A DNA stretch of 64,000 nt, taken from positions 42,968,001 through 43,032,000 of the forward strand of contig OZ076409.1 in NCBI GenBank assembly GCA_964187785.1, given 5' to 3'. Source of the DNA: Amphiscolops sp. MND2022. Taxonomy: Eukaryota. Position 1 is the first letter of the stretch. Every line of letters begins with the position of its first letter. The position numbers and the translations under genes are program-made. Below the pieces are notes generated by a model. The model searched no databases, was not told the DNA's origin, and saw only the letters and a program-made list of their open reading frames with translations. Below, piece after piece: positions 13,696-64,000 of this stretch.

Positions 13696-14091
13696 CTGAA
13701 AAAAGTAAAGATACTCGATTGCGTTCCATATAAAGAAGTTAAATCTGTCCAACCTCTTAGAAAAAAACTGTTTCACACAATTTGCTTCCATGTTTATGAT
13801 TCTACAGGTAGACAAAATAATCAAGGAATGCAGATTTTTAGACACGCAAGAAGTGGTTTTTTTTTATTTTATCTTTGGATTGGAAAAGTTCATCTATCGT
13901 TTCATGACGTCATCAACCAGTATATATACAAGACTATTATAAGCGCGCGCAACCGTTAAACCCACATTATTCGTGACATAATTCTCTCATCAGCCGTCGA
14001 GTCACTGCTGCAATTGCTATATCAAAATAAAACTATCCCAAATTTACCGCACCACCCCAACACAAGCACCCGTACTGAGACTCCATTCAAT

Positions 14092-37000: not shown

Positions 37001-38216
37001 CATTTGATCTTGGCTTGTAATTTCTCCAACGAACAGGAATGATCAATGTAGTCGATTATTAACAAGAACGAAGCCGTATTTGTAACCCGTGCGGGGGTAA
37101 CTGCCTTAAGTAAACAAACGATACGCATAGCATGTAACTCGGGAACCATTGACCCTAGGACGGTATAACTTGGCATGTAGCAACTTTGGAGAATGACGAA
37201 TAACTTCAAGGTCACCGATGGACCTCAAGGTCATTTTCGATGCAAACCCTGAACATATAGAAAAACTTACGATAAAACTTGTGAATCAGCGTCTTTGCGA
37301 AATAATTTAAGCATTTCAGTTAGGCGAGAGGCTCCGCAGTGGATTGCGCTCATAAGGACGGAAAAGTACCCCTTACACGTAGATAGCAGGTATACCATGT
37401 AATTGAAGGTCATTGTACGATCTGCTCAATATTAGAAATACCTCGGGTATTTAGAATTTTTATTGAAAAGTGAACTTTGTACAACCATTGTTGAAGTGTT
37501 TGTCGTTGGCGGCGAAGTATGCCTGGTTGAAATAAAACTAGGTCGTTGCCATGCCATAAAAGGAATGGAGATACATGAAGTCAAAAACACGCAAATAAAA
37601 GAGCGAAGTCGAAACAACAAAAATGCGGGTGATGAACGAATATATTTGAGGCGGAATTGGAATATACCTGAACAGACAGAACCGAGTTAGAAAGCTGTGA
37701 TTAAGTTGAGTCTCGCGGAGATAATATACTTGTTCGGAATAAAAACCACGCTGATCGACAACAGAGTAAGAAAGCTAGAAGAAAGTTGAGTCTCGCGGAG
37801 ACCAGGGACACTTCTAGAAAATTACGTTGTCGCTAGCTCTGTAGATTTGCTGGCAAATCCGGGACATGTGATTTGGTTGGAGTTGGAGCTTCAACAAGGT
37901 TAAATTGCGCCTAGCGTAGCTGGCTGAGTCGGGATTTGATTGTGATCATATCTTTTTTTCACTGGGATATGAATATAGTATTTGATAAATATATTCGCCT
38001 GGATTTTTGCCATGTTATATTGCCTCATATTCAATTGAAATATTGCAAGCAGAAATCCCATGAGTTGATAGTCGTGAGCCGAACGAGCATTATCTGGAGA
38101 GAGACATTCACATTAAAAGCAAAAGTATTGGCTAACTCACTAAAACAACCTTTTTCTGCTAGGCTTCCAACAGGAGGTTAAACTCTTTCCAAGCCCCGAA
38201 TTGGATTTTCCTACTG

Positions 38217-40940
38217 TGGCGCTCCTGGGTGGGCTACCGGTTCTTTTTGATGTTACTGTGGATGTTTGTGGACTTTGTGAAAGACATCAGATTTATCAGC
38301 CCGAGAGATGGATTCCGAGGAAAGAGATCTTGAGAGGGACCAAGTGGACGTTGGAGAGTTCCCGAGTAGCAATTCCCCCAGCTGGAGAGGGTGGCAGCTG
38401 GAGTTCTTGAGCACGGCCGATCGACTGCAATGGAACTACCAGAAGTGTTGCCAGCAGATATCGGGGTCACTCAGAGGAGAGCTGTGTTTAATGCTTTTTT
38501 GGAAGCCAAGCTCTTTGTTGAAGTAGAATTGGATGAACCTAGTGTGTCGGGTCTTCTTAGCTGAACTGTGCAAGTGATTGGAGTTTGTCAGATTGAACTT
38601 TTTGAAGAACATTTTCTTCTTGAGCTTCGACAGAAAAAAAAGAAGATTGTATCGCGGACTATGCACGAAGAGTGGGTGTTTTCAAGACGCTTGCTCTGAA
38701 AAAATTCGGCGGTGAGCATTAGGCCTCCGGTTGTTTGTCAGGTTTGAACGACGAGTGCCTCCGAGATGTTGTGAAAGATCATGAGCAAATTACCCTGATT
38801 GTTCAAGAGTTGGAACGCCGAGATTGTTTGGAACGGCAGCTGAATGGGCTGTGGGCTAAAATACTTCGAGTTGGACGTCGTTACGCTGAGCCAGAGATTC
38901 AAGAAGAAAGGTTGCTGACAGACAAAAAACACTTTAGCGTTGCCCAATGTAGTGGAAGTTTTCAGACACTTAGGATATTGTCGAAAGAGAAGCAGAGGAG
39001 AAACGTTGCTGACGTGAACAGTTCCAATGCTGCCCGATGCAAGAATGAAGAAACGCAATCAGAGAGCATTGCGCACACCAACGCTGGCCGTGTGGCGAGG
39101 TCAACAACAGCATGGAGAGCCCCATGCTTTGGACGTGAAGACATTGGTGATGAGTACGATGATCTTGTTGGAGAACAAGAAAGAACTGTGTGCAAACAGC
39201 ATCGACGGAGTGAATTGTGGAGCTATTCTGGTGACGAAGAATGGTCAGATGAAGAGAACGATGAGCTCTGGAGCGAGCTGGAAAGTGACGATCACTACGA
39301 TTGTCTGTACGAGCTGCTGAAAATGGAAGCCCTTCGACAGTTTGATGAAAGCAAGAAAGCAGAACTTGCCAGCGGAAACCATGTGAGCCTTGCAGCGCCT
39401 GACAAAAAGTTACAAGTTGATACCTGTCCAAGAAATTTTGATGTGGACGCATGAAGGTGCTGAGCGTTCATCAGTACTAAATGTAAGATCTGGAGAAGCA
39501 ATTGTTCAACGTGTTTGGATAGAGTATGATGTGAGGATAAACGTTCAGATGAATCATATCAATTGGCCAGAACGTGACTTGATTGAAAGCGTAGTGGTTC
39601 GACTGAACAACGAAGCAGCAGTCTCAGATTCTGAATTATTGAGCGTAGAAAGAACAACGCTTTTCAGTGAAAGATGTTCCATCACATTGGAAGTACGAAT
39701 GGAGCTCTCGCAAAGAACTGTTGAAACGTGAGAAGTCGAAAGTGAGAAATGTCCCACGCAAGCAGTCGAATGTGATTTCAAACCCACAGAAGAGCTAGCT
39801 GATTTGGAACTAGAATGTGGGAAGCAAATCAATCAGAACTGGATGTATGTGCGAAAGGCGGAAGCAGAAATGCCGTCGCACGGAATTCAGATCTTAGTTG
39901 TTGATGGTGAACTTCAATGCGACCCGGTGCTCGAGTTGTTAGGACAGCCCCGCAGCATGTGCCAGACTACAACGCCGATATCAAGCTGACGAAAGCAAGC
40001 TGGGCGCGACTCAAGAGCAAAGTTTGGACTTCATTTCTGAGGTTCATGACTGCCTTGTGGGTTCAAGTGAACGTACTGTTTGCCAGTGAAATGTCTTGTC
40101 CGTTAAACGCTTTGCCCAGATGTTCAAACGGATGGTATCAGGTGCTTTGGCCTCCGTCTGTTAATTGGGAACGAGCTGTGTCACGGATGTGAGGATGACC
40201 GGGTGCAGCACAGGCATTGTCTTCCCGAAGCTGCTGCAAAGGCGTGAAATGGAGAGAAGGCGAGGCGCCCTACACCTTCGAACGGAGTGATCGAAGTTGG
40301 TTTCGACGAGAAGGAAATCCTGGAGTTAAGCTGATTCTCTCAGACACTGATAATTCAATTGCGAACACGAGTTTTCTCATCGTTGGCATGGGGAACAGCC
40401 ACTCAGAAGTGAATAGGAGGCGAATGTTGTTCATTAAAGTCTCGAGGATTTGTCTGATGCACTCATGCAACGAGACTGAGATAACATGGGTGCATGAACC
40501 CCGAGAAACAAGTTGTAAATCACCGGAAGACCATGCGAGAGGAAGGCAACTTAATACATGGAACTCATCGAAGAACGTTAATTTGAGAGATGAGCACAGG
40601 ACTGCGAGGGAAGTCTACGACAGAGGAAAAATGAAACTCGACGGTGGCGACACAGACCAAGTGATGTGCAAGGCGATGTCAACTCCAGAAGGGAAGTGGT
40701 TCTGTCTCCCGCGACCCGCAGGAGAGGCCTGATTCAAGACGTGTCAGTGACAGTGGACATTGCGGGGCTGGTGCGGAACAAAAGCAAAATGTGGCTGTGC
40801 CAAGCGCTGATTCTTGCAGCTGGATCAGTCACAGTAAGCACGGATGGGGAAAGCGGAGGAACATGCAGTGCAAAACTCGATGAAAAGATGACCTATTCGG
40901 TGACGACAATGCGTTCACAAGATGCCTCCCCAAAAGACTG
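38217..40940 (+). mobile_element. Degenerate LTR-element internal region (tRNA-Asn PBS, gag-like remnant, no recognisable pol)
   Basis: TGGCGCTCCTGGGTGGGCT (38217-38235) is complementary to a typical animal tRNA-Asn 3' end. It is followed by a frameshifted gag-like ..LRQKK/EDCIADYARRV..SGLNDECLR. Confidence 0.55.
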
Positions 40941-42909
40941 AGAAATCAAATGAACACTGGTGACATGTAATTACAAACCTCAACATTTAACTTTTCTGCT
41001 GGAATTAGTTTTTTCCCTCGGATCTATGTGACCAAGCTAGATGAATTTTTGCATGGCGTAGCATGTTTGTTTTGGGAAAACAATGTTACAGTTTTGAAGA
41101 AAAAATTTTTTCTTTTCGCTGCCTAGAAATAAGTGGAACGTACATGCAGAAGTTCAAGAATGGTCTTTGTTTTTCTCCTTTTCGAGGACCCAACCCGACA
41201 AATTATTTTATTTCATACACGTTAAAACTATGCTTTTAAATTTTGTTTATTCTAAATCGCCGACCCTAACCATTTTTCTAAAACTGTGCCCATGACCATA
41301 CCAACACCCTCTTTTTCATAACTCCCACCCCAGTGCTAAACCTCTCTGTCTTTTCCTCTTTTGAGCCCGCAATAACCCCCCCAATCAAATTGTTTAATAA
41401 TGACCTATTCAGGTGGCACGTGTCTGGTATTCAAAAACCGATGACCGCAAGACCTTACTAGACCTATTAATTTACGCAGTATGTGTTGATGTCTCAGACC
41501 CACGCAACTTTCTGTACCTCCGGAAAAAAAATACTCAGGATTTACTTGAGAAAAGTAAGGACTTAAACAAGTTATGAAAAACGCGAGTCTTACAGTTATT
41601 AATTCGGATGAAATAACATGATGATGACGGGATGATGAGGACATTTTAGATGATACGTTTACAGTAGAAAAAGAGGAGGGGTTCGCTCTCCCATACCGCC
41701 CGAAAGTTTCTGGCGTGCTATCTGAAAACGAAGTTTTTGGGTTCATTGTAGCTCAAACTCGGACACCCAAGGTTCCGTATGAAGATGACAAACTCCACCC
41801 AACCCGGGCTTAGATGGGTTAAGCACAATAAGTTTTCTTCCCCCTCTACGGCTAGCTGCACCTCGTGAACCGCCCCAATTTCCCTACGAGTGATTATAAA
41901 CATTGTGCGAAAATATTGAGACTCTCAACCCAAATTCAGTGAGAAAGGGCCTTGTGCCATGTTGTTGGGCAGAGCGACGAGTAACGATTTTGAACGTTAC
42001 AAAACTCCTTATTACTGTCGACTTAGTGGATACAGGGTGTCCGGATGTTTTCTAGATAAACAAAAGCTAACACTTCAAGATTAGGGGCAGAGCGTCTAAC
42101 TTCATGGTACATTGAGTTGTCAAAAATTGACGGATTTTGCAAAGTAAATTTGGCGATTAACAAAACATTCAACGGCCAAAAAATTCACCTCATAAAGTTT
42201 TACTTCTAAACGTCAATAACTAAGACAGCGAGCAGAGAACCATTGAGGCCGGACCTGAATGTTGCTGAAAGTAATAAGACTACAGGAGACACCTTTGTTT
42301 GCTCGACAAATAGATTTCTAAATCAAACTCGGTATAACGAAGTGCATTATTCATAAAAAAAACTACTCATTACGAGATACTTGCTCTTCTCCACAGGATA
42401 ATTGGCTTTTAGAAAACTCTGCTTTGATTGGCCTCTCGCGGATCGTACCAGGCCTGTACAGCTAGTTTGGCTTAGGTGCTGGCTTGTTGGGGGACCAATC
42501 ATCGTGAAAATATTCTGTCGAGACTATTTTCGTCGAGAAGTAATCACGATACCTCCTCGGACATTACTTTGGAATGAAATATTCGATTTTTTATTTGACT
42601 GGGCAATGAAGCGAAGCCACCGAGAAGAACAAGAGTTCGAGGATGATTGAGTCCTTTGACTCCCCTAGTGTGTAAATGATTGGTGTTATATATGATGTTT
42701 AAATTGCCTATAATATTGTTTTTTTTTATTTTGATGTTATACTGGTTCATGAATACAGTAGATGTTATCAACGATCGGTGTTTTTTTATTAGAAATCATT
42801 TTGACCAGAGCCCAACCTCCTATCATAGCGTGTATGTTCAAACCATGTCCCACGATTCAGCCAACGACGTTAAGTTTATTCGGGAGAATAAAAATCCAGA
42901 AGGAAAGAG

Positions 42910-43738
42910 TGTGGAAAATTTAGCTTTTGACGTCTACAAAAGCCCATTGCTTTTCTGCGAAGCACGTACGATCAACAGAACTAGATTATTTACGCTTTTA
43001 AACTGTCGGAATAGTGAAAATTGCTGAAAAGGTTGACAATAGCGTGTTTCAATAAGGCTTATTTGGCAAATTGGGTGTTTACATAGAAAAGAACTTCCTA
43101 GGCAAACTTACCAAGTTGGTGAATAATGTCAGCAATGAAATTATTCGAATCGGCTAAGTCAAAGTAGATTTCTTAAAGCAAATTTTACTAAGTCTCACTT
43201 TTGAGCGGAAAACTTCTAAGATACCATACAAGGAATCCTCACCTTGCTAAATCGAAACCTCCCCAGTCAAGTTTTCTGAAAGACTATAAATCCTAGAGAC
43301 CTGAAAATTGGCACACGTATACCTGAGCTGTTATGCTACGCGCCCAAAAAAACGGAATCAAATCGACACCCCCCAACCCTGGGCTATTAGCACCGGAAGT
43401 GACCTAGGTCGACCCCCCTATGAACTTGTCGGCAAAGCACGAAACATGTTAGATAAGGTATGGAGTTCATAGCCCCTAGGATATTAGGCCGTTTGCGCAA
43501 ATTTTCGGAACCCCACCGACGCGTGCGTGTAGAAGGAGCACGGACCCAAAGAAAATAAACCCCGAATGTTATGTAAATCGCCACCAGTTGACCCGAAGAA
43601 CATGAAACTTGCCCAAGATGTTCACCAAACCAACCCTGAGTAATATACATGAAAGATACATTAAGCGGCGCACCACGCGCGAGGTAATGTTTGTTTAAGA
43701 CACGCGGGACCGGACGCACGGGATCGACCAAGAAAAGA
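42910..43738. repeat. Dispersed ~800-bp repeat, copy 2
   Basis: Direct copy of 36199-37000. Confidence 0.85.
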
Positions 43739-44864
43739 CCGGAATTGACACAAACTTCAGCCTAAGTTTTTTTCGGCAGTTTATTCAGTTTATTCATGCT
43801 TAGTAAAAGTTTTTTCCCTACTTCGGTGCTAAAGGTTCATCGGAAAGACATTTTCTTATTTTTAGTCAGTGCTGAATCCACCTTTATGTCAATCTTGACT
43901 AATGGTTTTACTTCGTTTTCAATGGGTTGTAAGGGGAGGTTTTACTGACTCAATTTTTCCCGCTTTTGCAGACACGAATTCAACTTCGTCTCAATGATTG
44001 ATATTTTTTGTCAGATCCCCTTTTCCCATACAACTCCTGACAACTAACATTCTTCAGCAAAATGTTGTTGATGGAAATAGCTCCCAACAATTTACAACGA
44101 CCTGAAAGAAGATTTTTTTCACATTCCAAAAAGTTGATTTTTGAGTTGCACGTTCTAAGTACAAAAACTAGGTGTTCCAATCATTGGGACCGAAAACCAA
44201 TTACATCCTCTGTAAGTGGTTTATAAAGTGCTACAAAGTTTTTTCTTTCGCTACCTTTCTATTTCGACTCTTTCACGATTAAAAAAACCCTGAAATAAAA
44301 GAGTCAAAAATCTGGTATCGACTTTTGCAAAAATCTCAAATTTGGAAAGCTCGTACTCATTCTTTTCGAACGGTACACCGTGGGGGCCTATGTACATCGC
44401 TACCCCAAACCATTAGAGTATTTTGCGTTTTAGATGAGGTCTCTATTTTTTTTCAACAAAATTTGGTGGCACTATTTCTGGACACAGTCGTTTTCCAAAT
44501 TTCTGTGGCTTGACCTCCAACTTTAGAGGTCAATATCACAAAACCAGCTCGTTTTTCGAAAAAATTTTCTGCTATAGGCTGTGCACCATACTCTTGTGCG
44601 TCTACCCTGAAAATTTCAGCTCGATATAGCTCAAAACTTGCGGCGGGGGATAGCATTTTTTTGAGGCTGATTTTACTATTTTAAAATAAAATCACAACAT
44701 TCAATTCTTGGGAGTTTTTCGGTAGTGCACAGAAGCGTTCTCTGTCGCCGGGTTTTCCCTGCGAGATGTCCGGGACGCAGCATAGGTGATCAGCTCAACC
44801 CGCTCCTTCCTGCCTTATTAGACCCGAAGACCCAGCACTAACTTTCGCCAGGGTCACAAACTTT

Positions 44865-45481
44865 AACAAGACGGGAACGTCTAAAGTCGGCGCTAAACCT
44901 AAGGCTCAAGAAGCGCAAAGTTTTCTAAATATGCTCAGGACGTATTCATGAAAAGCTTTGAAAACACTTTCGAGACACCCAAAGTGTGCCTTTCATGCTC
45001 GATATGACTGGAAAATCACTGTTTCCCGACTGGGAACAAAAATTGAAATTTTTTTGAAAAAAATTTTTTTGAAAAAAACTACTTCGAAAATGTCGCATAG
45101 TGCCGAAAAATGAAAAGGGCGGACCCTTTGGGACTCAATAACATACATTCTGTTGCAAAATATCAAAATACTCGAATGGGGGGCGCTTTTGAGACCTTAA
45201 AAAATTTTTGAAAAAAATTTTGCACAGTGCCGAAAAAAATTGAAAGGGGGACCCTTTGGTCTCTTCCGGTTTTGTAGGTTACGTAAAAAAAGGTAAAAAA
45301 TGAAAGGGGGACCCTTTGCACTAAGTTTCCATTGGCCTGACTTGGCCTGAGTAATTTTATCAGTTTCTGTAAAAAGTGGTACATACGCGATGAGCTCTGT
45401 GGTCTGACGAAAAAAAAGAAAAAAAACTAGCCATTGTAATAGTCGGGCTTTTTCCCTAAAGAAAAAGGCGCCGACTAAAAA
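44865..45481 (-). mobile_element. HINE/DINE-1-like element
   Basis: AACAAGACGGGAACGTCTAAAGTCGGCGC ... AGTCGGGC..GGCGCCGACTAAAAA. Confidence 0.72.
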
Positions 45482-46006: not shown

Positions 46007-46235
46007 AAACAGCATGATGATCTAACTCAGAAACAGCATATACGGAAATCACACAGAAACAACATGATGATCTAACTTAGAAACAGCATATGAGGGAATC
46101 ACACAGAAACAACATTATGATCCAACTTAGAAACAGCGCATGCAGGAATCACACAGGAACAGCATCATGCTCTGACTTAAGGACAGTATATGCAGTAATT
46201 TAAAGAGAGCAGCATGACGTTTACACTCAAAAACA
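46007..46235. repeat. Minisatellite, ~50-bp unit (24+26 dimer of AAACAGCAT-led monomers), about 4.5 copies
   Basis: AAACAGCATGATGATCTAACTCAG-AAACAGCATATACGGAAATCACACAG repeated. Confidence 0.85.
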
Positions 46236-46442
46236 GCATATTGAACACCAGCGAGGCAATACTACCAAATTACATTGCGTTATGCGGTTTTCATAAAACT
46301 GCTAATACAGAATCATAATGACAAACAGCATAAATTGTATAATATTCCGCATTTATCCGCCGCTATCACGGCGCTATTGTTAGACTTTCTAGGGATGTGA
46401 TGTCATGGTTTTTTTTATCCCCTGACCCCAGAAACATGAAGT

Positions 46443-50596: not shown

Positions 50597-53500
50597 CGTC
50601 ATGGTTTGGTCCCTGCATGTGGGGACGAGAGCAGTTATCAAAAACCAAACCAACGCGAGGTGGGGAACAACTCACTGAGGGACCAAGGTTCACACGGAGA
50701 ACGTCACACCTCGCACACCCGAAAACGTCGGAGAAAAGCCGCCTTCGACGTCACAAGCCAGGCGATAACGTTGGTTTTTCGGTGGAGGGACCAGGTCAAC
50801 CTGCCTACTGGGCCCTGCTAATCTTGGAGGCAGGAGATGTGGAACAAAACCCCGGGCCTACAAACAGCTCGATATGCAACAAAGAGTTCATCGATGAGAA
50901 ATAAGCAGCAGTATGGTGCCACCTCGGAGGTTGGGTCCACCTGAAATGTACACATCTCAAGAGGATCAGACAGTGGGTCGCAGATTTTGTGTGTCAGAAG
51001 TGCGAGTGGTGCACTAAAGCTATGTCACCGGCGGAGGACCCCACACCCGATCCAGAAACATGAGACGAGAAAAAGAAACGACGACAAAACGAAAAAGCAG
51101 AACGAAGAAGGAGAAGGAAGCACATACGGCATAAAAATTGGGGGAGACGCGAGCCAGCCTGAAAGGAAGAGCAACAGCAACTGAAATCTGGACCTGAAAC
51201 ATACAGCGGGCCAGAGTAGCCTTCCCGAAAAGGAACAGGTTCTGCGAAATCCTGAAAACGATTGGCAAGAGCGCTGCGGAAGTGGTAATGTTAACAAAGA
51301 TGAAAGAAACTGAAACCAGAATGAAGTGGATCAAATCAGAAGACCTGTATGGCGTCCTTGTTCACGGAAAGAAAAACGGGGTGCTGCTTAGAGACGACTG
51401 GGGCAGTTAAGTGGAAAGAACAAGGATGCAAGCGTTACTGTGGAGAAAGATGCACATCAGTCGAAGCGGACGGTACTGGTTTTATAGCAATATATCAGCC
51501 TCTAGGAAACAGCGACGTGGTGGAGTTCGCCGCGTACCGCGAAGAGCTGAACGGCCTAATCCTGAAGTGCAAACAAAAGACAAAGCTGATAATTGGATGG
51601 GGATCTGAACTCGAGCGTTGGTAACGACACAAAGAGAGAAAAGGACGAAGTGGCTGGTCCTTATGGTCTCGGCTCAACGAACTCGGCTGGCGAAAACCTC
51701 ATCAACTGGTGTCACGAACAAAACCTGTCCTTTGTCGAGTCTTTCTTCAACTACAAACGGCGAAGCACGTGGAAATGCCCGGCAAGGGGCACGTGGCATG
51801 AGCTAGACGAGTTGCTAGAGAAACAGCAACAGAGGAGCAGACTAGTGAAGATACGAGAGAACGATATACGAGTTGCTGACGACGACAGACAACACGACAA
51901 AGCGCTCCGAAGACAGAGCCACGGAAGCACCGAAACAACTGGAAGTGAGCATCAGCTACATAGAATTCAAACACGAACTAGCACAGATGAAGGACAGCGG
52001 TATAGACGGAGTAACAGTAAACGCAGTAAAGTCTCTGACAGAGAGCAACAAACACAAACTATTCCAATGCATGTTGAAATTACTGGACAAACCGCCGCTA
52101 ACATTCCCCGACGAAACCAAAGAAGGATGGGTAGTGCCGCTGCATAAAAAAGGCTCCCGAAATGATCTCAACAATTACAGAGGCGTATCTCTGCTGCCGC
52201 TGATTAGCTGCATAGTAGTCAAAATTGTCGCCACAAGAATAAGAGTATGGGCAGAAACACTGGATATACTTGGGGAAAACCAGAACGGTTTCCGCATCGG
52301 CCGATCAACCTGCGACGCCACCCAGATAGTACTCCGAATAGACGAGGAAACCCGCAGAGTTCTCGGATACTGCGAAGTAGTGAAGCAGGGAAGGAAGGTC
52401 TGAGCAGCGAATGGATACCAGCGCGAGGCCTGAGAGAGGGTTGCGCAACCTCACCAACCCTGTTTAATATATACCATGCGGATGCCATGAGAATAGCACA
52501 ATCCAAAAGAAAAGAAAAGGCGAAAGAACAACAATAGGAGTGCGGACTGACATGGACATGGACACCTGGTAACTGCTTACCGGCAGCTGAACCATCAAGA
52601 ATTCTACACAGCAAGAAAAGCGAGACCATAAACATAACAGACACACTGTTCGCAGATGACTCAACGTTAGTCGGATGGACCGATGAACTGGCGACTGGGA
52701 AAGAATTGGTCAAAGAATCCATGCTGGAGTTCGACGAGAAATGCCACGACGGCAAAGAAGATTCCATAGCCTTCGGGACGGTAGGCGCCCAATCAACAAG
52801 AATGCTAGGCACCCTCCTGGGCTGGATAGAGGACTGTAACGCCAGAATAAAACGAGGTAACGCCGCCTGGGCAAAAGTACGCAAATGGCTATGGAGATCC
52901 ACCTTGAGTAAACGAACAAAAGCCTTCGTAATCCAAGCAGTTGTTGAATCAACCATGTTCTTTGACGGTAACGCTCGCTCGTGGAGACTTTCGGACATCA
53001 AGAAACTGCAGAGCGTGGCCGACCGATGCTACAGATTCATATGGAACAACGGGAAAAGCAGGGCTTTGATAAGAATGCAGGAAGAAAAAACCAACAGCTA
53101 TGAAGTACGGCGACAGCTTAACATCACGTCCATACGAACAAAGATCGAAACAAGATGCCTAGAAAGGATTGGACACGTCCTTCGGATGCCCAACAACCGT
53201 CTCACGAAACAAGTCGTTTTGGGGCACTGGAAAAAAGAACGCAGGTCGGAAGGAAGACTGAACGGAGGTATCCTAAACTATTGGAGACGGATAGTGAAAG
53301 AAACCGGCGAGGACTGGACTAACTCAGAAAATTCGTGCAAAGATAGGAAGAGTTGGAAGGCAATCATTTCAAAACTAAGAAAATTCCTCAGAGAATGGGA
53401 AGAATCTATGCGCAAACACACGCGAGGAGAAGAAAAAGCACAAAAAACGCAAATGAGAATAACAAAAGATCTGACATGCCGCTGGGAAGGGTGCGGAAAG

Positions 53501-53933
53501 AAATGCAGAACAAAGACAGGCCTAGTACAACATGAACGAAAGACACAAAGAGTTGACAAAAAAGCACAAATGCCCAAAATGTAGAGCAGAATTCAAAGAA
53601 TACACCAACCTGACAAATCATGTAAAAGCGTGCCGAGGCACAGTAAGAGGAACATGTCCAGACTGCGGAAGAAAAGTGCTACCGACAAACATGGCCACAC
53701 ACAGACGAGAAAACTGCCCAAACCAAAACCAACAACAACGGCAAAAGAGAGACACGAACCAAATAGAAGGAATAGAAATCAACAGATTCACAGGAAAAGA
53801 TGAACGACGATCATGCCCTGAAGGAAGCGGGGCCTGGATCACAGCGAAAAACATGGCCCGACACCGAAATAACAACTGTCCTCGTGGGAAGCAACCAAGG
53901 CCCCTGGAGGGCGTAAATGGAAAATGATGATGA
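50597..53933 (+). mobile_element. RTE-like non-LTR retrotransposon (2A peptide, PHD, APE, RT, C-terminal zinc fingers), decayed with internal deletions
   Basis: 16-bp TSD TTAGTGGAAGCCAGCT (50581-50596, 53934-53949); (ATG)n 3' tail. APE: GDLNSSVG, TWHELD. RT: NYRGVSLL, QNGFRIGRST, GLREGCATSPTLFNIY, LFADD. Also GHVLRMPNNRL and several CxxC..H zinc fingers. Confidence 0.93.
50809..50859 (+). other. 2A-like (StopGo) ribosomal skipping peptide
   Basis: WALLILEAGDVEQNPGP matches the D(V/I)ExNPGP consensus. Confidence 0.9.
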
Positions 53934-55004: not shown

Positions 55005-55604
55005 TTAATTTGTGTCGTAAGCACGAGAGTTTGTGCTTGTGAGTCCGTCTTTGGGACGGTCATTGGCCTGTTTGTTCTTAGAATCGTTCCTAGGTTCTGA
55101 GTTTTGCAGTGCTTCGGAATATCCTTCCGGTCTCTCGGCCGGAACGTTCCATCTCTCTTTGGTCAATTGTCCCGACCCGGCCATAACTACATTCTGGATT
55201 TGAGGCAAAATTTGGCTGCTAATTGCCTCATTTATGGCTCTTTGAATCTGAACACTGACACTATTCATCATTTCGTCCATATCTCGAGATATACGTGAAT
55301 TTAACTCACTCGACAATCTATTGATCTCAACGCTCGAACACTCTCTGATTGAATTATGGCCTAATTCGGTATTTGGACTTGGTCCATTATTTCTCGGATT
55401 TGGGAATCCATTCTCATTTTCATCTTCAAATTCATCTCCAAACGAGCTTTCTGGCCTACCGGCCTGATTACTATTCACACTTTCATTTCTCTCATTTCTT
55501 TCAAAATGGTTTTCGCCTAACATAATGTCCAGATTATCAATATCTGATAACATCTCAAGTCCTCTAGACTTTCTCGCTTTCTTTTGCTTTCTAGTGGTAG
55601 GCAT
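55005..55604 (-). CDS. LTR-encoded N-terminal gag-like ORF (truncated at the LTR end)
   Basis: MPTTRKQKKARKSR.. followed by coiled-coil SSELNSRISRDMDEMMNSVSVQIQRAINEAISSQILPQIQ. Stops two codons after ...AYD at the CA terminus. Homologous remnant at 9208-9771. Confidence 0.65.
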   Translation of the reverse strand: MPTTRKQKKARKSRGLEMLSDIDNLDIMLGENHFERNERNESVNSNQAGRPESSFGDEFEDENENGFPNPRNNGPSPNTELGHNSIRECSSVEINRLSSELNSRISRDMDEMMNSVSVQIQRAINEAISSQILPQIQNVVMAGSGQLTKERWNVPAERPEGYSEALQNSEPRNDSKNKQANDRPKDGLTSTNSRAYDTN

Positions 55605-56804
55605 TAAGACAGAACCGGGTTGAATAATTCAATTATCAAAACCGGAAAACTGACAAAAGTCGTTGTATTATTTCGATCTTTATCAAAGTGAAGGTATGAG
55701 ATTAATAATCTTTTTACAGGAATATGGCTATATATACTCGTAAAAAGATGACACTCACATTCCACAAATCCTTTGATCAAGAAAACATCACATGTTTATG
55801 GCCTTAACAGGTCATGTGACAAGTATTATTACGGCATTGGGTTGGGTATTCAACACTTCAAAGCGGATATTTTAGGGTGATGTCCCAATTGGGAAAATTC
55901 CTAGTTTCAGGGTGGTCCTTAGGAATTCAACATCAAAAGAATGATATTTAACGGGGCACACAAGCAGCACCTTCAAGTGTCATGTTTATAAACATCATCA
56001 ACATTACCTTGTCAGCAAATACCAATGTCTATTGAAGGAATGCAAAAAGCATCTCTTCGGAATGCACATGCGACACGTGTCACCACGCGCCTATTATTCA
56101 ACGTAAGGGGAAGCAACTTCAAATAATACATGTCTAATCTATTTAAATACCACTGCATCATTAAATAAGAGTATCTCTCAAAAGGGCCGAAATTGGCCAA
56201 ATCCTGATTAATGGTACAATACTAGGGGGAGGAAGGGTAAAAGACCTTAATCGGCCTTTGATCAGCATCTAGTTTATTCGGTCCGTTGGGGGGTGCGTTG
56301 GTATTATTTTAATATTAAAACACCTTTGAAATGATCCCCAACTAATATGGTTAACTATAAAGTACAGATAATACAGCATCACTCATTGCATCAAGACGGC
56401 CTAAACCGGCCATTTGACCAAGGTACAAAACAATTCGTGGACATTAAGTTAATTGGCCGTATTCGGCCGCTACCAAATCAAAGCTATATTGCACTTGTGA
56501 ATTGGAGCGCTGTGATTGGTTGAGGGAATGAGCTCAAGTGACGTTTTTGGATTATCGCTGAGCGTCACTTGAACTCGTTTCCTATACCGCTTTACAGTTG
56601 CTTATACTAGTATTGCTTTTCGATTCAATCGATTTACATTTCAACTGCACTTTCACAAAGTAGCCTAATTTGGACATCTCCAAAATGTACAATCTTTAAC
56701 AGACTAATATTAACTTCATTCAAATATGAAACTTTTACATGAAAACATACAAAGCAACAACTAATCGTTAAATAAAACTAGTTTTTAAGGTCCATAACCT
56801 GTAT

Positions 56805-57590
56805 TCAGTATTTTGGCAGTGTACTCGGTGTTGGATTTTGTTCTCCTGCCGATGTAGTATAGTTATTTCCGTCACAGGCGGCAGCCTGCGACACTGCGGG
56901 AGCGATGAAAAGTAGACAACCTGCATTCAGTCCATTTATGTACGCTTCTCGCCTCAATTTGGTGACAAATTCGGGTTCCCCGCGCGGCGTTGATCTCTCC
57001 ATGTACCAATTGATCTTCTCGTCTTTAATCTCATCTACTGATTTCCCACATACCATGCACCCAGTATATCTCTGGCTGCTCAGATTGTCATGGGGTCTGG
57101 TATTTTGGATGTGGTAGGACGCATAGAACCCGCTCGTTGATGGTTGGACTAAAGGGATATCTTGACTGGGTCCCCTTTCGTGGTCCGGCGGCGACATCGG
57201 GGACTCTAGAATCGGTAGGATCGTATTACACAGTTCAATGCGTGACTTTTCCATCCTCTTAGGCGGGGCATAGCACCTTTCTAAGTCGAAGTACTTGTGA
57301 TCCATTTTTGGCGTCTTCTCAGCATTTGTACCGGATGTACTTGGTCCGGCTACTGACACATCTTCTTCGGGTATCTCCGAAGTCATTATCCTTCCCCCAA
57401 TGAGCATAGGGCTAGATGTAACTTCTCTCTCTATCCGCGCTATCAGTTGTTCTGTATCGGTGGAACAATCCGTCTCCCAGTCTGATGCTTCGCTCTCGCT
57501 ACTCGATATGTAGATTACAGATTCCTCAGAGCCTTCTGAGTCGAAATCTTCCAAGTCAAATAACTTCCTTGCGAGATTGTATTTACTCAT
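56805..57590 (-). CDS. Accessory ORF, 261 aa, acidic N-terminus and CxxC motif; function unknown
   Basis: Intact ATG-initiated ORF with coding-like GC content; motif CMVCGKSVDEIK. Confidence 0.7.
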   Translation of the reverse strand: MSKYNLARKLFDLEDFDSEGSEESVIYISSSESEASDWETDCSTDTEQLIARIEREVTSSPMLIGGRIMTSEIPEEDVSVAGPSTSGTNAEKTPKMDHKYFDLERCYAPPKRMEKSRIELCNTILPILESPMSPPDHERGPSQDIPLVQPSTSGFYASYHIQNTRPHDNLSSQRYTGCMVCGKSVDEIKDEKINWYMERSTPRGEPEFVTKLRREAYINGLNAGCLLFIAPAVSQAAACDGNNYTTSAGEQNPTPSTLPKY

Positions 57591-57939
57591 GATGACTTTC
57601 TTCGCTATTTTGAGGCTTGTAGATGCAACTGTATCGTGATGAAGTTTTAGGATGGAATGAATTTGTCAAATCCAAAATTTAGCCGAGTAAGGCGTTTTCC
57701 CGAAGTTTCCAATTTGGCGGTTAGACCTTCGGTTAATCGTCCTGATCTGTCATAAACTTTTCAGAATGGAATTCCTTGACTTGTCGGCTCCCTTTGATAA
57801 CATGATGTTTACCCCTCATCAGTGTCATCACTAGAAGAGGTGTGAATGACTCTCAGCTTATGAATATCAACTACACCCGTCTCAAGTGGGTAATTAACGG
57901 GTCGCTTGCAAGCAATTAACGGCGCTTGTCGGATAAAGC

Positions 57940-58080
57940 TCACTGAAATGGCTTCAGCCAATCAAATTTGAGCTTCGATAAATTTGGAAAATTGAATAAT
58001 AAAGATGGCGGAAAATAATAATTTTGAATAACTAAAATGGCAAAAATAATAAATCTAAATAATCCAAGATGGCGAAAATT
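57940..58080. promoter_or_regulatory. Putative bidirectional promoter core (YY1-like and CCAAT motifs)
   Basis: AAGATGGCG at 58002 and 58066, AAATGGC twice, AGCCAATC at 57956; located between the divergent ORFs. Confidence 0.4.
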
Positions 58081-58504
58081 CTAACTAAGGGTAACTGGAC
58101 AAAACGACGAAACAAAACAGGGCAACCGGCCATAACCGGCCCTTTAACTAAATAAGCTGTAAATAACAAAGTCCATTGTACACTTCGCTGGCAGACTCCA
58201 TGTACAGAATAAATATGTAGGTAATCCATAATATTAGTCTGGTAATAATCTTCAGCCACGAACTCCAACTTTCAATTATTTTACCCAATTCCAATTCCAT
58301 TTAATTCTAATCATCTTACATTTGTCTTCTTTTATTTGCAATCCTTTAACTGACATCTGTCCACACACATCCGTAGCGTTTTCATTGTCGCTGTCCGCAG
58401 AAGTATCCTTATCCCCTTCATCTCCGACCGTGAACGGCCGCCACTCAGTTTCTCTACCAGTCAGCCCGAAACAACTCTTGTTGGAGCAACGTCGTTGGAG
58501 AGAC

Positions 58505-61500
58505 ATGTCTTCGAACACAGGTTGGTCTGGTTTTCATATATTGAACTAGTTTAGCTTGATCAGGGCTAGACTTTGTTCACAATAAGCTTCCTGTTCCCAC
58601 TAATAAGCGCGTGATAGCTCATTTTGTTCAAATTCTCAAGTACTTCCGGAAGATTTCTAATGCGGTAAAATGGATTCTTTTCGAGGAAGCATACCGCCAA
58701 ACTTTATCTCTTTTCGTTTAGAGAATCAAACAACCGAAGTTGTCGATGTACCAGCCGAACCTACTGTTACTACTTCAGCAGCTAGTCCCCCAACCGAAAC
58801 TGGCCCACGAATCCAGAATCCCGGTGTGTCCCACGAGCTATCTCTGAGCCGATCAGAAGACGTCACCTCTACTCACAGTGCTGACAGTGACCCAGATGTG
58901 ACATTGTATGCTGAATCCATGGTCCAACGAATGCAGCAGGCACAACTCATCACTGCCCAAGAGAATGATCAGCTCGAATCCGCCCAGCTACATGGTCAAG
59001 AACCAGTCAATGATCCCTCGGGAGTTATGTCAACAACGACTGAGAACCGAAAGTCGAGCACTCCCATTCAGTCAGATGAGGAGGGAATCCAGGAAGCTGA
59101 TCTGTCTGCTTTGGAATCTGCTTTGAGAGTCATTGAGGCCTCTGCGTCTCAGTTGCCCGAACTGAGGAACAGGGACGAGTCAGACCCTTTAGATGGAAGC
59201 GGGGTTCAACCCAAGACCGATGAAGATAACGCCTCGTCCGTTTGTGACGTACCCTCACTCCCTGGCGGTGACCCTAAGATACGATTCACTGAAGAGTTGG
59301 GTGAAGAAGAAGAGTCTACTGGAGAGTCAAGCAGACTGGTCCCTGTGGAACTGTACGGACGTCCCCCATTCGGCCCTGAATCTGAAACTGAATGTGAAAG
59401 GGAAACTAGTTCCGAATGCCAGCCTTTGGGAACTGGAAAAACGCGGACAGCTGGGGGAAGTTCAAGTCAAGACAAACCCCCGGAACTGTCGGGTCGCAGT
59501 AGGGCCATCCTGAAGGAATACTTCGATTCTGCATCCCCAATTAGACTTCCTGTCGGGCACACTACTATCGCCCTCACAGAGCTTCAAATGTATCACCTGC
59601 TGCGTACGCTCACAGACGAGACTCTCCGCCAGTCTTTCAACACCATGGAAAGAATGGTAATAGACGCTGTCCGAGGCACCCCGACTGCTCTCCCTTCACG
59701 CACCTCCCATTTCCAACTCAAGAGAAGGGCACAAACTCCCGGACCTGGGGCTCAAAGTGATTCTGAGTCGGACAGTGACCTTGCCGGAACAGCCTCAGAT
59801 CAGCCAGAATCAAGCAGCGACGACTCTGGTGGGGCTTCTTTCTACGAGGAGAGTGACAGTGCTACTGAGATGGACTTGATAACGAAGTCCTTCAAACAAA
59901 CTCCTTCTCGACCTCTAGTCGGAGGGGTCCAGGCGGACACGTCCAGTAGCCAACAGCATATTTGGCCAGATACTGAGGGTTCCAGTAGTCAGGATACCAC
60001 CTTATATGAAATGCGCGAACAGGCTCAAAAGGACCAACCAGAAGGACACTCTAAATCGAGGAAGAAAAAGGGCAATAAAAGACTTTCCAGGAGAGGTGTA
60101 CCCATGAGAGAAGAATTCTTCTCTAAGATAGGATGGACGAGGTCGTTCATTTCCGGGCCGGCCGATCCCTTGCATAACCCGCTTATGGTCTGGTGCCATA
60201 TTTGCAAGAAGAATTTTTCTATAAAATCAAAGGGGCCCTACGAGATTTTGAGACACCACCGGACAGATCGCCATCTGAGACGTGACCAGAGGTGGCGTTA
60301 CGAACACCTGCGCAGCGTTGACCCAGTCAGTGGCAAAGTGCAGCATCGAGTTAGAGGGGCCAACGGCAAGATCTTGACGAAGATCGAACTGGCCAATCAG
60401 CTGCCCAAATTCATCAAAGCTGAACTGGTGGACATAGGGGAGAGGTTCCCTTTCTACGAGGACTTCATCCGGGGGACCACTACAGCCTTGGTCACACAGG
60501 AAGCGAGAGTGAAAACTCAACTTTGCCTGGTGGGCGATTTCATAAAGACTCTGGGTGACTTATCCGTCCTGAGGAACATGTGGTCTAGGATGGGCGCCTT
60601 TACCAACCACCAAGCCACTGTGTGCGATTTTGATTGGAGCGAGGAACGCATGAGTGTAAGTATATTCCTGGTAATCCATCCACTAATTTGAGAGTTTCCT
60701 TCTAAAATAGTTCCATTTCCTTTTCAGGCCATATTCCAACACTTCTTCACTAGCGCCCTGACCGACATTGCTGAACATGTCACTGCTGAACAATGCTTTG
60801 CTATTGAATTTGAGGCTGCCGGGATATATCGCTACATGAGCGTCAAGTTTTGGAGGGGTCATGAGCTTTGCCGGGTCTTCATTTGCCGAAGTTCCCTTCC
60901 CGCGACTGACGTGACTGGCGAACTGGGGTCTCTAGCCCGATTTTTGTCAGCTGTCTCGACCCAACCGGATGTGGTGGCATGCTCTGGGTGCCACGTTGAT
61001 TTCGCAAAGACGATAGACCAGTCCGACTACTTCCCACAAGGAGTCCAATGCTGTTTCCGCTTCGAACAACTATCATTACCTACTTTGATGCACAAATCCA
61101 AGTATTCTGTCTTTGGCCAAATAGACTTCTTCTCCGTCCTCCAGGCTCTGATGGTGTCTCTGGGTGGCTCTCTGACTGAAGAATGGGCAATGCGAAGTCC
61201 TGAGCTTACTAAAGTAAGTATTTTGCTTCGTCTTTCTTTTAGTAGTCGGGGGTTGGTTAACTTAGGTACCATAACGAACAGTCCCTAATCGGCTAAATTG
61301 GTTTTAACAGGCAGTGACCAGTTTCAAACTCGACATCAGGACTCTGCCGGTTCTCTGTACGGAGCTGGCCAAGGAGTGGAAACCCATACTCCGCTATTTG
61401 ACCGAGCATGCCCCCATTCAAGGAGGTCAAGGAGTCCGTGGCAGGGTTAGATTTGCTTTCATTCCCTTAATGGTATAATCAGATGGTTTCATAATAAGGT

Positions 61501-62877
61501 CTTCAGCCTTTCTCTAGTCTACCAAACTCTTTGTGGAACCTAACGTACGTTTTTCCTTTAAGGCACAGAGCTTCGAGTGGTCCCTAATCTGTGACGAATT
61601 TTTCGTCGTCAAGTTGGAGTTCTTCAACAGGCTCGTGAGCGACTGTAAGTAGTTTACCTTTAGGGCAGTCATCCAGAGTTTTACTCCACTCTAGGTTTTG
61701 CTTTGTGTTTCCAGACGTGGCAAGTTTCCCAGTGAACCTCCAACACAGACGTGATTCCTCCTTTTATCTATGTGGAGAAGTTTGCCAATTCTTAAGTTCA
61801 CTTTGCTCTCGCGTCTATACTCCTGATACGGTGCCTCTAGCGAATGCCTGGTTCCTGTTGCTGCGCTTCCAGACCAGTGAGGCCACTTTCTTGGATGGAG
61901 AGGAATACCTGATCCGTTTGAGGCTCTCTCATAAGGTGTCATCGGCCAGCAAAGCAAAAGCGGAAGGAATGCATTTCGGGAAAAAATCGGAACGCCCAGC
62001 GATCCTGGCTACTACAGAGACTGTGAAGTCCGATTTCATCAAAGACAGTCAGCAATATATACAATACCTGATCAATGAGATCCTTCGGCAGACTGGGCTG
62101 ACTACTAACATTGTGAAGGGGATGGCCGCTTTCGACCCTCTTATCCTGTTCAAGCGACCTATGGAAATAGCCCTGCGGCACTTTGACATTCTCTACAGTA
62201 CCTTCTCTCTCCGTTCTTGGGTCTCCAGTGCTAACGAGTCCTTGTGCCGTGATCAATACATGCAGTTACTTGACCATCTACGTACAGCCTATGACCCAGA
62301 TTTCGACATATCGAGTGTTTCAGCTGATCTGATTGAGTTCCTGTCCGAGTTGGAATTCCTCCGTAATCGTAGCTGTTTGTTCTACTTATTCAAGTTGTGT
62401 TGCTTGTGCGCTACGACTGTCAGTCACACGTACCCTGATGTCACCTTCGGGACAATTTCCACTGCTGGACGTCATAACAGATTGACCGACGTTATTCTTC
62501 CCAGCCAAAGTTACGTGGCTAACGTGCGCGATGCGGTTGCTTTCTGTAGCGACAACGGGAACCTGACCAAGTTCATCGACTTTTCTTCTTCTTTCGGACG
62601 TTCTGCATTTGCCTCTGACTATGATCCTTGGACCTACGTGGACAATTTCGGACGTTCGAAGATTTATAAGTCGTTGCTGGCCTCCTACCGGACAGCACTT
62701 TCCACCCCTCAGAAAACTCTAGTCCGGAGTGCACCAGAGGATCAAAGCTCCGTAGCTGATACATCTGCTGTGAAAGCCCCTTCTAGCACTAAACGAAGGA
62801 AAATGGAACGTCGAGCTTCTCGGGCATCCTCATCGTCCACTGTTGGAGCCATTGAGCCTGGCTCATCTAAAGACTAA
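58505..62877 (+). CDS. Six-exon gene, about 1271 aa: disordered acidic N-terminus, BED-like zinc finger and hAT-transposase-like body (probably catalytically dead)
   Basis: Exons 58505-58520, 58722-60655, 60728-61213, 61311-61445, 61563-61644, 61715-62877. All five introns are GT..AG with compatible phases (1,0,0,0,1), giving a 3816-nt open frame. Finger WCHICKKNFSIKSKGPYEILRHHRTDRH. Exon 1 is the least certain. Confidence 0.85.
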
Positions 62878-63118
62878 CTGTACATATGTATGTATGTACT
62901 TTCAGACTGTAAACTTTGTTGATTTCTTTGTTGTATTTATTCTTTCGTTTGCCCTTGATTTCTGTTTCCTCATTATTTGTATCTTTCACCCCCGTATTTA
63001 TTTATTTTGAGAGGGGTCCTTCATTCGTCCCATTATTCAAAAGATACTAAAGGGACTGGAAAAAAACGGAAAAGAAGGTAATAAGAAAGAACTCCCATTT
63101 TCGGGAAGAATTCAATCT

Positions 63119-64000
63119 TTAGTATCTGAAGTCTTCTGAGTAGTTTGGATTAGGGTTAGGCCTGAGATTATATTTCCCTCCTCTAGGGCTCAGACTTTCA
63201 TTTCTAGCATCGCTTTCGGATATTTCGGGCACGATAATATCATCCCCCCTTTTTGGAGAGGTTTGTGTATCGTTTTCATTCATTGAATTTCTTTCTGAAA
63301 AAATTTCATTATTTTCTGGTCCACCTGCCGTACTCGGAACAGAATTTTCTTGGTTTTTTGGGGAAACGGCCGGATTCGGCCAATCAGATTTGGTATTTTC
63401 TGTCACTGCAGTAGCTTTATCTCTTTCAGTGACGTCATCATCCAAGCGTTCATTCCGGCTGTGTGTCGCGTTGTCGTTGTTTAATTCTCGCGTGATTATG
63501 TAATACGCTTCATTCTCGTTTGCGTCATTTGTATTTTCTGCCGTACTCGGCCGTTCGCCGTTCGGCAAGTTAGTTGGAATAGGTTCGTTGCCTCGTGTAA
63601 CTAGCTGTTCGCCGAAGTCTGTTTCCCACGTTATGACGTATAAATCGTCTTGCGGAATGACAATTTCTTCGTCTGGCTGCAGACGTTGTTCTCGGAAATT
63701 GTCCTCAAGTGGTTGATTGGGAATGAACTTTTTAAGGCGAATACGATGCAAAATGTGAGTTTTGTTTGTATTGATCCTTCGTACTATGTAGTTTTCATTT
63801 GGTAAAACCTTTTGGACTACAAATGGTCCAACCCAACGGTAATCGCGGAATGGAATTTTTGATCCTTGATGATCCGCTTTCGGCTGTAAGACGAAACAGT
63901 AATCATTCTCCTTCAATGGAGCAGCTTTTGCTTTGCGGTCGTAATATTCTTTGTATTTGATGTACGACTGCATAATGTTCTGCTTCGTTTTGTCAATTAG
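63119..64000 (-). CDS. pol: Gypsy pol C-terminus: integrase GPY/F region and long acidic tail (5' partial)
   Basis: KEYYDRKA..RWVGPFVVQKV..NYIVR..HRIRLKKF; ends KYNLRPNPNPNYSEDFRY*. No disruptions. Confidence 0.9.
   Translation of the reverse strand, partial: LIDKTKQNIMQSYIKYKEYYDRKAKAAPLKENDYCFVLQPKADHQGSKIPFRDYRWVGPFVVQKVLPNENYIVRRINTNKTHILHRIRLKKFIPNQPLEDNFREQRLQPDEEIVIPQDDLYVITWETDFGEQLVTRGNEPIPTNLPNGERPSTAENTNDANENEAYYIITRELNNDNATHSRNERLDDDVTERDKATAVTENTKSDWPNPAVSPKNQENSVPSTAGGPENNEIFSERNSMNENDTQTSPKRGDDIIVPEISESDARNESLSPRGGKYNLRPNPNPNYSEDFRY

Follow-up and report, generated by a model that had tools for sequence, protein, structure and literature searches.

An antisense, intron-bearing gene of likely hAT ancestry is a fixed part of a Ty3/Gypsy retrotransposon family in Amphiscolops

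The origin and role of antisense genes in LTR retrotransposons are an open question. For the plant cases, the available part of one report treats their origin as unknown, the genes resembling no other transposable element (TE), and calls for a search for antisense spliced transcripts (PMC7264820). The question is raised again by the window analysed here, a stretch of 64,000 nucleotides from Amphiscolops sp. MND2022, in which an earlier note made from the sequence alone had placed a spliced gene resembling a hAT transposase antisense within a large Gypsy element. Is this gene part of the element, where did it come from, and what may it do there?

Organization of the element

Of a complete Ty3/Gypsy element of 16,315 bp, the window covers the 3' part, and the 5' LTR, gag and the PR, RT and RNase H segments of pol are all situated beyond it. 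The LTR-like end at 55013 and the minus-strand pol stop at 63119 proposed in the earlier note were both borne out, and the cognate 5' LTR was found past 64000 with the target-site duplication (TSD) that had been guessed, ATTTG. The 3' LTR (55013..56893, minus strand) is 1881 bp long with TG...CA ends, starts with TGTCG and is 99.47% identical over 1887 columns to its 1887-bp partner at extended coordinates 69441-71327 (L021:7441-9327). The 5-bp TSD (55008..55012) recurs as an identical five bases after the other LTR, and a 5-bp TSD is present in 4/4 assessable copies. A primer-binding site starting with TGG lies immediately 3' of the 5' LTR in five of six copies, and comparison of this site identified no matching priming tRNA. 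No purine run of at least 12 nucleotides adjoins the LTR in the three copies scanned for a polypurine tract, the longest being a 7-nt run in one lineage, and the coding sequence of a second extra gene, ORF-X, runs through the expected place. These elements constitute a large and recently active family of LTR retrotransposons.

Pfam matches place the pol domains in the order PR-RT-RNase H-integrase after gag, and the best PDB sequence matches of the RT are the Ty3 and foamy-virus RTs. Between PR and RT, a segment resembling dUTPase (E 0.12) was unconfirmed on re-check. The window contains the 3' end of pol (63119..64000, minus strand), comprising the integrase C-terminus, recognized by its domain match, and a tail. 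The gag gene begins inside the LTR, and a copy of its first ~200 codons is found within the 3' LTR (55013..55628, minus strand), where the translation is that of the first part of the gag frame (580 aa); the same duplicate occurs in other copies of the element. The inventory of the earlier note stands for the antisense gene and needs two corrections, as it missed ORF-X and as the pol of the window copy is itself disrupted by an in-frame stop (extended coordinates 65393-65395). Those other TE frames of the window with a Pfam match are fragments, in agreement with their earlier description as decayed.

ORF-X (56805..57590, minus strand) is the sole sense ORF after pol, in the position of the errantivirus env. 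It encodes 261 aa with an acidic N-terminus, a CxxC motif and a C-terminal end inside the 3' LTR, has no Pfam match and is 31-72% identical in other lineages. Between ORF-X and the antisense gene lies a divergent spacer (57591..58504), a putative bidirectional promoter, which is 70-79% identical where the adjoining coding parts are 56-69% identical, a comparison in which the R-U5 value for C1_53 is affected by a masked run. On the other side, the converging stops of the antisense gene and pol are separated by a spacer (62878..63118) that contains TGTA repeats and, on the sense strand of the element, AATAAA; a sense AATAAA or ATTAAA is found between pol and the antisense gene in seven of eight copies.

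Structure of the antisense gene

As the earlier note had claimed, six plus-strand exons join at GT-AG sites into a single open frame of 1271 aa. Exon 1 (58505..58520) consists of 16 nt with the ATG, which is preserved together with the splice donor in 4/4 aligned lineages. Exon 2 (58722..60655) encodes an acidic S/T/P-rich region of ~445 aa, followed by a basic patch (residues 451-459), a BED-like zinc finger of the form C-x2-C-x16-H-x5-H (60194..60274), whose four ligands are invariant in 9/9 aligned copies, and a putative dimerization region. Exon 3 (60728..61213) would form the N-terminal half of an RNase-H-like core with the catalytic aspartates apparently replaced. Exons 4 (61311..61445) and 5 (61563..61644) continue the open frame between conserved introns, and exon 6 (61715..62877) is predicted to supply a helical insertion domain, the C-terminal part and a basic tail (basic patch at residues 1244-1247). 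Among 7393 candidates, no annotated, longer relative of exon 6 was found.

The five introns measure 201, 72, 97, 117 and 70 nt, and all are GT-AG on the plus strand, which equals CT-AC on the strand of the element. Introns 2-5 occupy the same codon positions, with GT-AG ends, in distant lineages, and intron 4 is precisely absent from one copy; from this conservation and the one precise loss, we infer that the gene is spliced. By established logic, introns that are antisense cannot be spliced from the genomic RNA, so each new copy inherits the gene intact. The family is a natural demonstration that spliceosomal introns survive across deep divergence when they are in antisense.

Linkage to the family and selection

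Linkage of the antisense gene to the element family is fixed. The gene is antisense in 21/21 scored close copies and in all 20 sampled copies that share the integrase, which runs counter to the possibility, raised in the earlier note, that other copies of this pol lack it, and the layout is the same in lineages only ~30% identical. Rather than being single-copy, which the earlier note had named as grounds for abandoning its proposal, the gene is present in very many copies, with 108 matches when 107 of 7503 candidates were scored. One of two extra copies, L069, has neither ORF-X nor the exon-2 core in the 4.8 kb that precede its match to exon 6. Outside this host, metagenome scans gave no copy, with one bacterial contig being spurious, and no match was found in viral contigs and phages.

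The core of the gene evolves with a dN/dS of 0.02-0.07 (0.02-0.06 for the core portion of exon 2) and the acidic part of exon 2 with 0.11-0.15, in a table that leaves out the RT rows and in which the integrase row of C11_72 is inflated by a frameshift. Together with the conserved introns, this purifying selection supports the claim that the element maintains its cargo. Since the genome is rich in hAT elements (150 scored matches), it could be imagined that a hAT transposon is nested in one copy only, or that the gene is a neutral passenger. This reading is refuted by a position and orientation that are constant in every copy examined, by the low dN/dS, by introns kept at 30% identity, and by the absence of hAT ends: as noted earlier, no terminal inverted repeats (TIRs) with an 8-bp TSD surround the gene, the longest inverted match being 10 bp and the best flank match 6/8.

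Origin of the antisense gene

Ancestry from a hAT transposase is likely, and the evidence for it is concordant while each single test stays below significance. In fold searches with separately modelled exons, the Hermes transposase ranked first of 48,161 for exon 3 (Hermes 153-237; Z 4.5, rmsd 3.1 over 78 residues; model pLDDT 52), and exon 6 matched Hermes 367-609 (Z 5.4, rmsd 5.0) over 164 residues, more than any other alignment in the top 50 rows. The two matches are collinear, with Z scores in a range common for unrelated folds. In Atlas, the finger region retrieved ZNF862/ZBED5-type rows at 0.83, taken as a lead only, and exon 6 retrieved hAT-dimer rows at 0.91. The predicted order of parts, running from the finger through the dimer region and the RNase-H-like core to the helical insertion and the C-terminal part, would be that of Hermes (PDB 8edg) and of host genes domesticated from hAT transposases (ZBED, ZNF862 and GTF2IRD2 types).

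Searches of the gene against Pfam, PDB sequences and Foldseek gave nothing significant; a zf-BED match reached E 0.65 in only one of nine aligned copies, the hAT C-terminal dimerization motif PF05699 was found in 0/52 members at E 0.1, and PF14291 had no match in the genome or in the controls. Profile-profile comparison with an Ac-like alignment of six host hATs and with a 43-member ZMYM1/THAP12-type alignment yielded E 0.02-0.36; the match at E 0.02 covers 13 columns upstream of the transposase proper, while the best local alignment sits on the first catalytic strand. The gene showed no similarity to 12 host hAT loci, and thus its donor was not found among them. Mapped by weak alignments and the residue numbering of Hermes, the putative D-D-E positions hold E, S and a residue unconserved across the family, so that the catalytic triad looks lost. 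In contrast to hAT transposases, the gene lacks a significant sequence match, a conserved catalytic triad and a TIR/TSD, and has the 445-aa acidic extension.

Alternatively, the functional gene may be a captured zinc-finger host gene that resembles Hermes by coincidence, as the non-significant sequence and profile tests against hAT families, the unremarkable Z scores and the low confidence of the exon-3 model would allow. This is improbable, because two exons folded apart match Hermes in the correct order, both Atlas queries lead to hAT families, and the best local profile alignment falls on a catalytic strand. Of the earlier proposal that a class I element holds a class II-derived DNA-binding gene, capture and maintenance are upheld, and the hAT source has individually non-significant evidence behind it. 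Under the hAT reading, a hAT-type transposase gene would have entered a Gypsy-clade ancestor between pol and the 3' LTR, in antisense, the simplest route being the insertion of a DNA transposon; the gene would then have lost its ends and catalytic triad, with the finger and the entire scaffold retained and a long acidic N-terminus carried.

Palindromic dyads as candidate target sites

The dyad GGCC-N6-GGCC occurs six times in the window against 0.19 expected (0/100 shuffles), and five of the six sites are inside the element: three in the LTR (56185..56198, 56398..56411 and 56455..56468), one in the divergent spacer (58128..58141; like-placed in C1_88, C2_54 and C1_53) and one in the pol tail (63368..63381; like-placed in 6/6 type-A copies). 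The spacing is 6 in 25 of 28 GGCC..GGCC pairs, many of these sites being orthologous and so not independent, and dyads are retained in LTR parts too diverged to align. The dyad was first spotted by eye and then recovered in an unbiased scan, where it beats the best of 20 shuffles ~30-fold (7.6e-7 vs 2.1e-5); in C11_72, it has only two sites and falls below the top rank. Lineages with a different finger have the motif GGAC-N5-GTCC instead (8 and 10 sites vs 0.3-0.4 expected). This suggests that the motif changes with the finger, as seen in one evolutionary contrast between two clades that also differ in gag, pol and ORF-X.

Alternatively, the dyads may serve as RNA hairpins for Gag or ORF-X in packaging or export, which the differences in Gag and ORF-X between the two clades would fit, or as DNA sites of a host factor, with the antisense gene being a maintained accessory gene. 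Four of the five dyads of the element in the window pair with a probability of ~1 in local RNA folding, and the pair flanking the core is often U-G on the sense strand (17/23 counting wobble). Yet any GGCC-N6-GGCC is able to fold, the promoter dyad does not, the spacer is strictly 6 (or 5), other short stems are not enriched, and the positions flanking the core form Watson-Crick pairs at the rate expected by chance (6/23). Host-factor sites, in turn, would not be expected to vary in sequence and spacing between clades of one genome. Altogether, we consider the hairpin or host-factor reading rather unlikely.

Another reading would have the protein act at integration, by binding cDNA or the pre-integration complex as a chromatin tether or for nuclear entry. 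The whole transposase scaffold rather than the finger alone is strongly constrained, the protein has its two basic patches, and LTR dyads would occur on cDNA. However, the ordinary 5-bp TSDs indicate that the integrase performs the joining, and dyads are additionally found in the putative internal promoter and in coding regions. Moreover, integrases 98-99% identical occur in elements whose antisense genes are only 52-56% identical, which argues against a tight integrase partnership and leaves a role at integration unlikely. Of the three functions offered earlier, the motif evidence thus favors autoregulation or anti-silencing over integration targeting.

Comparison with known systems

A search of the literature found no description of an LTR retrotransposon family carrying such an antisense transposase-like gene. 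The HBZ gene of HTLV-1 is spliced. It likewise encodes an antisense nuclear regulator of a retroelement, as mentioned in the available part of PMC11963269, although HBZ is a retroviral bZIP protein driven by the 3' LTR and of an origin unrelated to the gene described here. The Ty3/Gypsy elements Retand, Grande and RIRE2 of plants also have a conserved ORF that lies in antisense between pol and the 3' LTR; gene23 of Grande has its own promoter, and the plant ORFs are suspected to be DNA-binding or regulatory, according to the accessible sections of PMC11963269 and PMC7264820. Retand-type ORFs have TRP28 (PF04195), which has no match in the Amphiscolops gene, and the latter differs from the plant ORFs in its five conserved introns, its 1271 aa, its hAT-like anatomy and its candidate target motif; the term 'intron' is absent from the available text of PMC11963269. 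Accessory coding has also been acquired by Gypsy-type elements such as Juno and Vesta (ORF3) of bdelloids and Burro of planarians, yet the extras listed in the accessible parts of PMC5408684 and PMC6431247 are DEDDy, GDSL, env-like and in-frame polyprotein domains rather than a spliced antisense transposase-derived gene. Unlike for hAT-derived host genes, the domesticating 'host' would here be a retrotransposon, and the family supplies a case with a plausible donor class, hAT.

A putative regulator of its own element

Our preferred reading, to which we assign a probability of about 0.5, is that the protein regulates its own element in trans and in a sequence-specific way, much like VANC of VANDAL (Mutator) and TnpA of Spm/CACTA elements. 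These are fast-evolving, element-encoded regulators with short targets across their own element; the available texts indicate that VANC proteins and their target motifs evolve together (PMC5735166) and that TnpA arose from a transposase (10.64898/2026.08.24.746577). The latter preprint contains neither 'LTR' nor 'retrotransposon'. VANC and TnpA are encoded by DNA transposons of plants and reverse DNA methylation, as far as the accessible portions of these sources describe, whereas the present case involves an LTR retrotransposon, a probable donor of another class and no CpG-methylation signature. CpG in the element is neither depleted nor hypermutable, and VANC-like removal of DNA methylation is therefore unsupported.

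For the regulator, transcription would start from the internal promoter, back to back with ORF-X, and the protein, as a putative dimer, may bind the dyads in the LTR, internal promoter and coding regions of its own subfamily. For comparison, the BED domains of Hermes bind cooperatively to a quasi-palindrome, as stated in the part of PMC10368747 available. The protein would most likely activate transcription or hold silencing off, and the antisense gene, ORF-X and upstream LTR sequence behave as a single module that changes fast over a conserved gag-pol. Somewhat more tentatively, at slightly less than even odds, it could be speculated that, in a clade of animal LTR retrotransposons, an entire hAT transposase has been domesticated to serve these elements as a transcription factor of their own, binding palindromic operators in the element, even in pol codons, and that the cassette of regulator, ORF-X and upstream LTR is exchanged among subfamilies that have gag-pol in common, giving each a private activation or anti-silencing code. 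The two candidate operator sequences render the function testable. If binding proves true, the co-option of transposases as regulators reaches a retrotransposon, beyond host genomes and DNA transposons, and the family would be one of naturally re-specified DNA-binding fingers. Finally, one copy with identical LTRs has a frameshifted antisense gene, which is what a trans-acting protein would lead one to expect.

Architecture of the element

The minus-strand Ty3/Gypsy element carries a selected, intron-bearing antisense gene that is fixed in its clade, together with a lineage-specific palindromic dyad. The element lies only partly inside the window; with the window extended past its end, it proves complete and measures 16,315 bp. 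Its LTR at 55013-56893 (-) pairs with one at 69441-71327 (-; window numbering continued past 64000), the two being 99.47% identical with TG...CA ends, and ATTTG flanks the element on both sides. The matching 5' LTR and ATTTG target site duplication that the earlier note expected past 64000 have thus been located. The 580-aa gag starts about 600 nt within the LTR, with ~200 codons inside it (55013-55628), and the primer-binding site falls within the gag frame; a TGG site directly follows the 5' LTR. No polypurine tract was found next to the 3' LTR (56894-56940), nor in most copies. The pol order is PR-RT-RNase H-integrase, interrupted in the window copy by one in-frame stop. A weak, unconfirmed dUTPase-like signal (E 0.12) occurs between protease and RT (4917-5339, minus strand, of L021, the stretch beyond the window end), the place noted for Burro in PMC6431247.

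A second extra gene, ORF-X (56805-57590, minus strand, element sense; 261 aa), is conserved and reads into the 3' LTR, whose first bases encode its C-terminal motif; at least the first 17 LTR bases are identical in lineages about 30% apart in the antisense gene. In 7 of 8 copies, AATAAA with TGTA repeats is found on the element sense strand just past pol (62878-63118). It could end the gag-pol mRNA ahead of the antisense gene, in which case full-length RNA would need read-through.

The antisense gene and its introns

The antisense gene (58505-62877, plus strand) lies between the pol stop (63119, -) and the 3' LTR, and the proposed six exons hold up, joined across five GT-AG introns into one 1271-aa frame. 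Introns antisense to genomic RNA survive reverse transcription of that RNA. None of the ten splice dinucleotides is lost in 4/4 aligned lineages, where introns 2-5 mostly diverge faster than adjoining exons and contain frame-breaking indels. Among 20 near-identical copies, five of eight splice sites are intact in every copy and the remaining three in 19/20. Introns 2-5, compared in four copies, sit at the same codon and phase in distant ones, their splice sites matching in place at 8/8 in copies C1_53 and C6_P73, 7/8 in C11_P20 (the remaining one not locatable) and 6/8 in C2_54. In C2_54, which has identical LTRs, intron 4 is precisely absent and exon 4 joins exon 5 directly (L064:6519-6730), independently confirming these exon boundaries and suggesting recombination with spliced cDNA; exon 4 of this copy is also frameshifted.

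Distribution and selection

The earlier note asked whether the gene is multi-copy and always beside the same pol. Exon 6 gives 108 matches at 71-100% identity (107 scored out of 7503 candidates), and 21/21 scored DNA candidates cover the whole block from ORF-X through the antisense gene to pol. The 112 scored integrase matches in the 1.07 Gb assembly are all at least 98% identical; 21 coincide by coordinates with known matches of the gene, and 20 of the other 91 were sampled. In every one of the 20, exon 6 is antisense and located where expected (nearly whole in 19, with a deletion in one); identity is 52-56% in 19 and 68% in one. The layout recurs in two lineages at ~30% identity, each with many recent copies and LTR pairs 98.7-99.7% alike over alignable parts. 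In one extra copy (L069), neither ORF-X nor the exon-2 core was found upstream. A library search returned 438 relatives, two of them without a close match in the Amphiscolops sp. genome searched, which hints at other hosts. One element has a 3.4 kb tandem duplication spanning the end of the antisense gene and the 3' half of pol (L030-L031, joined 8588-15333), and in a deletion derivative (L044:1-1201) ORF-X adjoins the exon 6 end, most of the gene being absent.

The proposal that the gene is maintained agrees with a dN/dS of 0.02-0.07 in its core exons, beside 0.04-0.05 for integrase and 0.11-0.15 for its acidic N-terminus; 19 close copies pooled show 294 synonymous versus 67 non-synonymous differences, the pairs being non-independent. 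That the gene is a mere passenger is very improbable. C2_54 and C1_53 match the window at 95-97% DNA identity in integrase and 92-94% in RT, but at only 59-69% in the core of the gene, ORF-X and the upstream LTR. From five pairwise comparisons, this block appears either to have been swapped as a unit or to evolve far faster than pol.

Antisense genes are known in the same interval of plant Retand and Grande elements (PMC11963269, PMC7264820), and transposase-derived regulators in plant Spm elements (10.64898/2026.08.24.746577); further comparison literature comprises PMC5408684, PMC6431247, PMC13547354, PMC10368747, PMC9911081 and PMC5735166. Searches of the accessible full-text literature showed no LTR element whose antisense gene is both spliced and hAT-derived; an earlier annotation, for example in Repbase or a subscription journal, is possible.

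Origin of the encoded protein

Searches for hAT or other homology gave nothing significant in Pfam, PDB-sequence, Foldseek or profile-profile tests, as a non-hAT origin would predict. That origin is nevertheless rather unlikely, and hAT ancestry highly probable, from concordant weak signals that are each below significance. The BED-like finger in exon 2 (C-x2-C-x16-H-x5-H) is invariant. In fold searches with exon 3, Hermes transposase ranks first out of 48,161 chains (Z 4.5, residues 153-237, poor model); with exon 6, none of the top 50 rows aligns over a longer stretch than Hermes (Z 5.4, 164 residues, Hermes 367-609). Both Atlas queries return hAT families. At the inferred catalytic positions, placed by Hermes numbering, the family shows E, S and one unconserved residue. 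The resemblance to a hAT transposase noted earlier holds for these agreeing signals, but not as a significant match or at the apparently replaced catalytic residues; the protein looks like a hAT scaffold that is not a hAT transposase. Neither TIR nor 8-bp duplication is left around the gene, as the first reading had it. Elsewhere, L060-L063 are non-autonomous hAT derivatives present in multiple copies, in which the coding capacity is reduced to the C-terminal dimerisation region.

Dyads and a predicted regulatory role

GGCC-N6-GGCC occurs six times in the window versus 0.19 expected; five sites are inside the element, where the LTR holds three and the divergent spacer and the pol tail one each, and the sole other is at 45334-45347. 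The dyad was first spotted by eye; when inverted 4-mer dyads were afterwards scanned without bias, it ranked first in 4/6 related copies and second in a fifth, after its own nested core, with a p value better than the best of 20 shuffles. Copy C11_72 has two sites only. The spacer is 6 in 25/28 GGCC..GGCC pairs, and the dyad is retained in LTR parts too diverged to align. In the two distant lineages, whose finger is different, GGAC-N5-GTCC takes its place, at 8 and 10 sites versus 0.3-0.4 expected and partly within pol codons. The nested core of this second dyad occurs four times in a further copy, which is partial. Cross-counts of the other type's dyad are 0 in all six GGCC-type copies and 1, 0 and 0 in three GGAC-type copies.

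We put the probability at roughly 0.5 that the antisense gene is a trans-acting, dyad-binding regulator of its own element, as predicted from sequence. It would have been captured by nested insertion and be transcribed from an internal bidirectional promoter, its protein binding the dyads as a dimer. The protein would work in trans, in keeping with a copy whose LTRs are identical and whose gene is frameshifted, and its acidic N-terminus may serve activation or anti-silencing; no CpG methylation signature was found, so silencing, if countered, would be of a different kind. The co-change of motif and finger is one evolutionary contrast in which many sites are orthologous and other element proteins differ too, and 4/5 sites are able to fold as hairpins; that the dyads are recognised by a different factor, or in RNA form, is a lesser possibility. 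Action of the protein at integration is somewhat less probable still.

Other repeats in the window

A decayed, unrelated Gypsy-type element lies in fragments at 315-5405 (-), with zinc knuckle, RT and integrase, and long inverted repeats pair 3215-4110 with 10757-11609. Decayed LINE-like frames at 51593-53584 (+) show a weak RT match and a zinc-finger-like C-terminal end. Further repeats (27181-28779, 36199-43739 and 46007-46256) comprise a direct repeat of 98% identity spaced by 1299 bp, another repeat of 85-91% spaced by ~6.7 kb, and a 50-bp tandem array; several MITE-like families have short termini in common.
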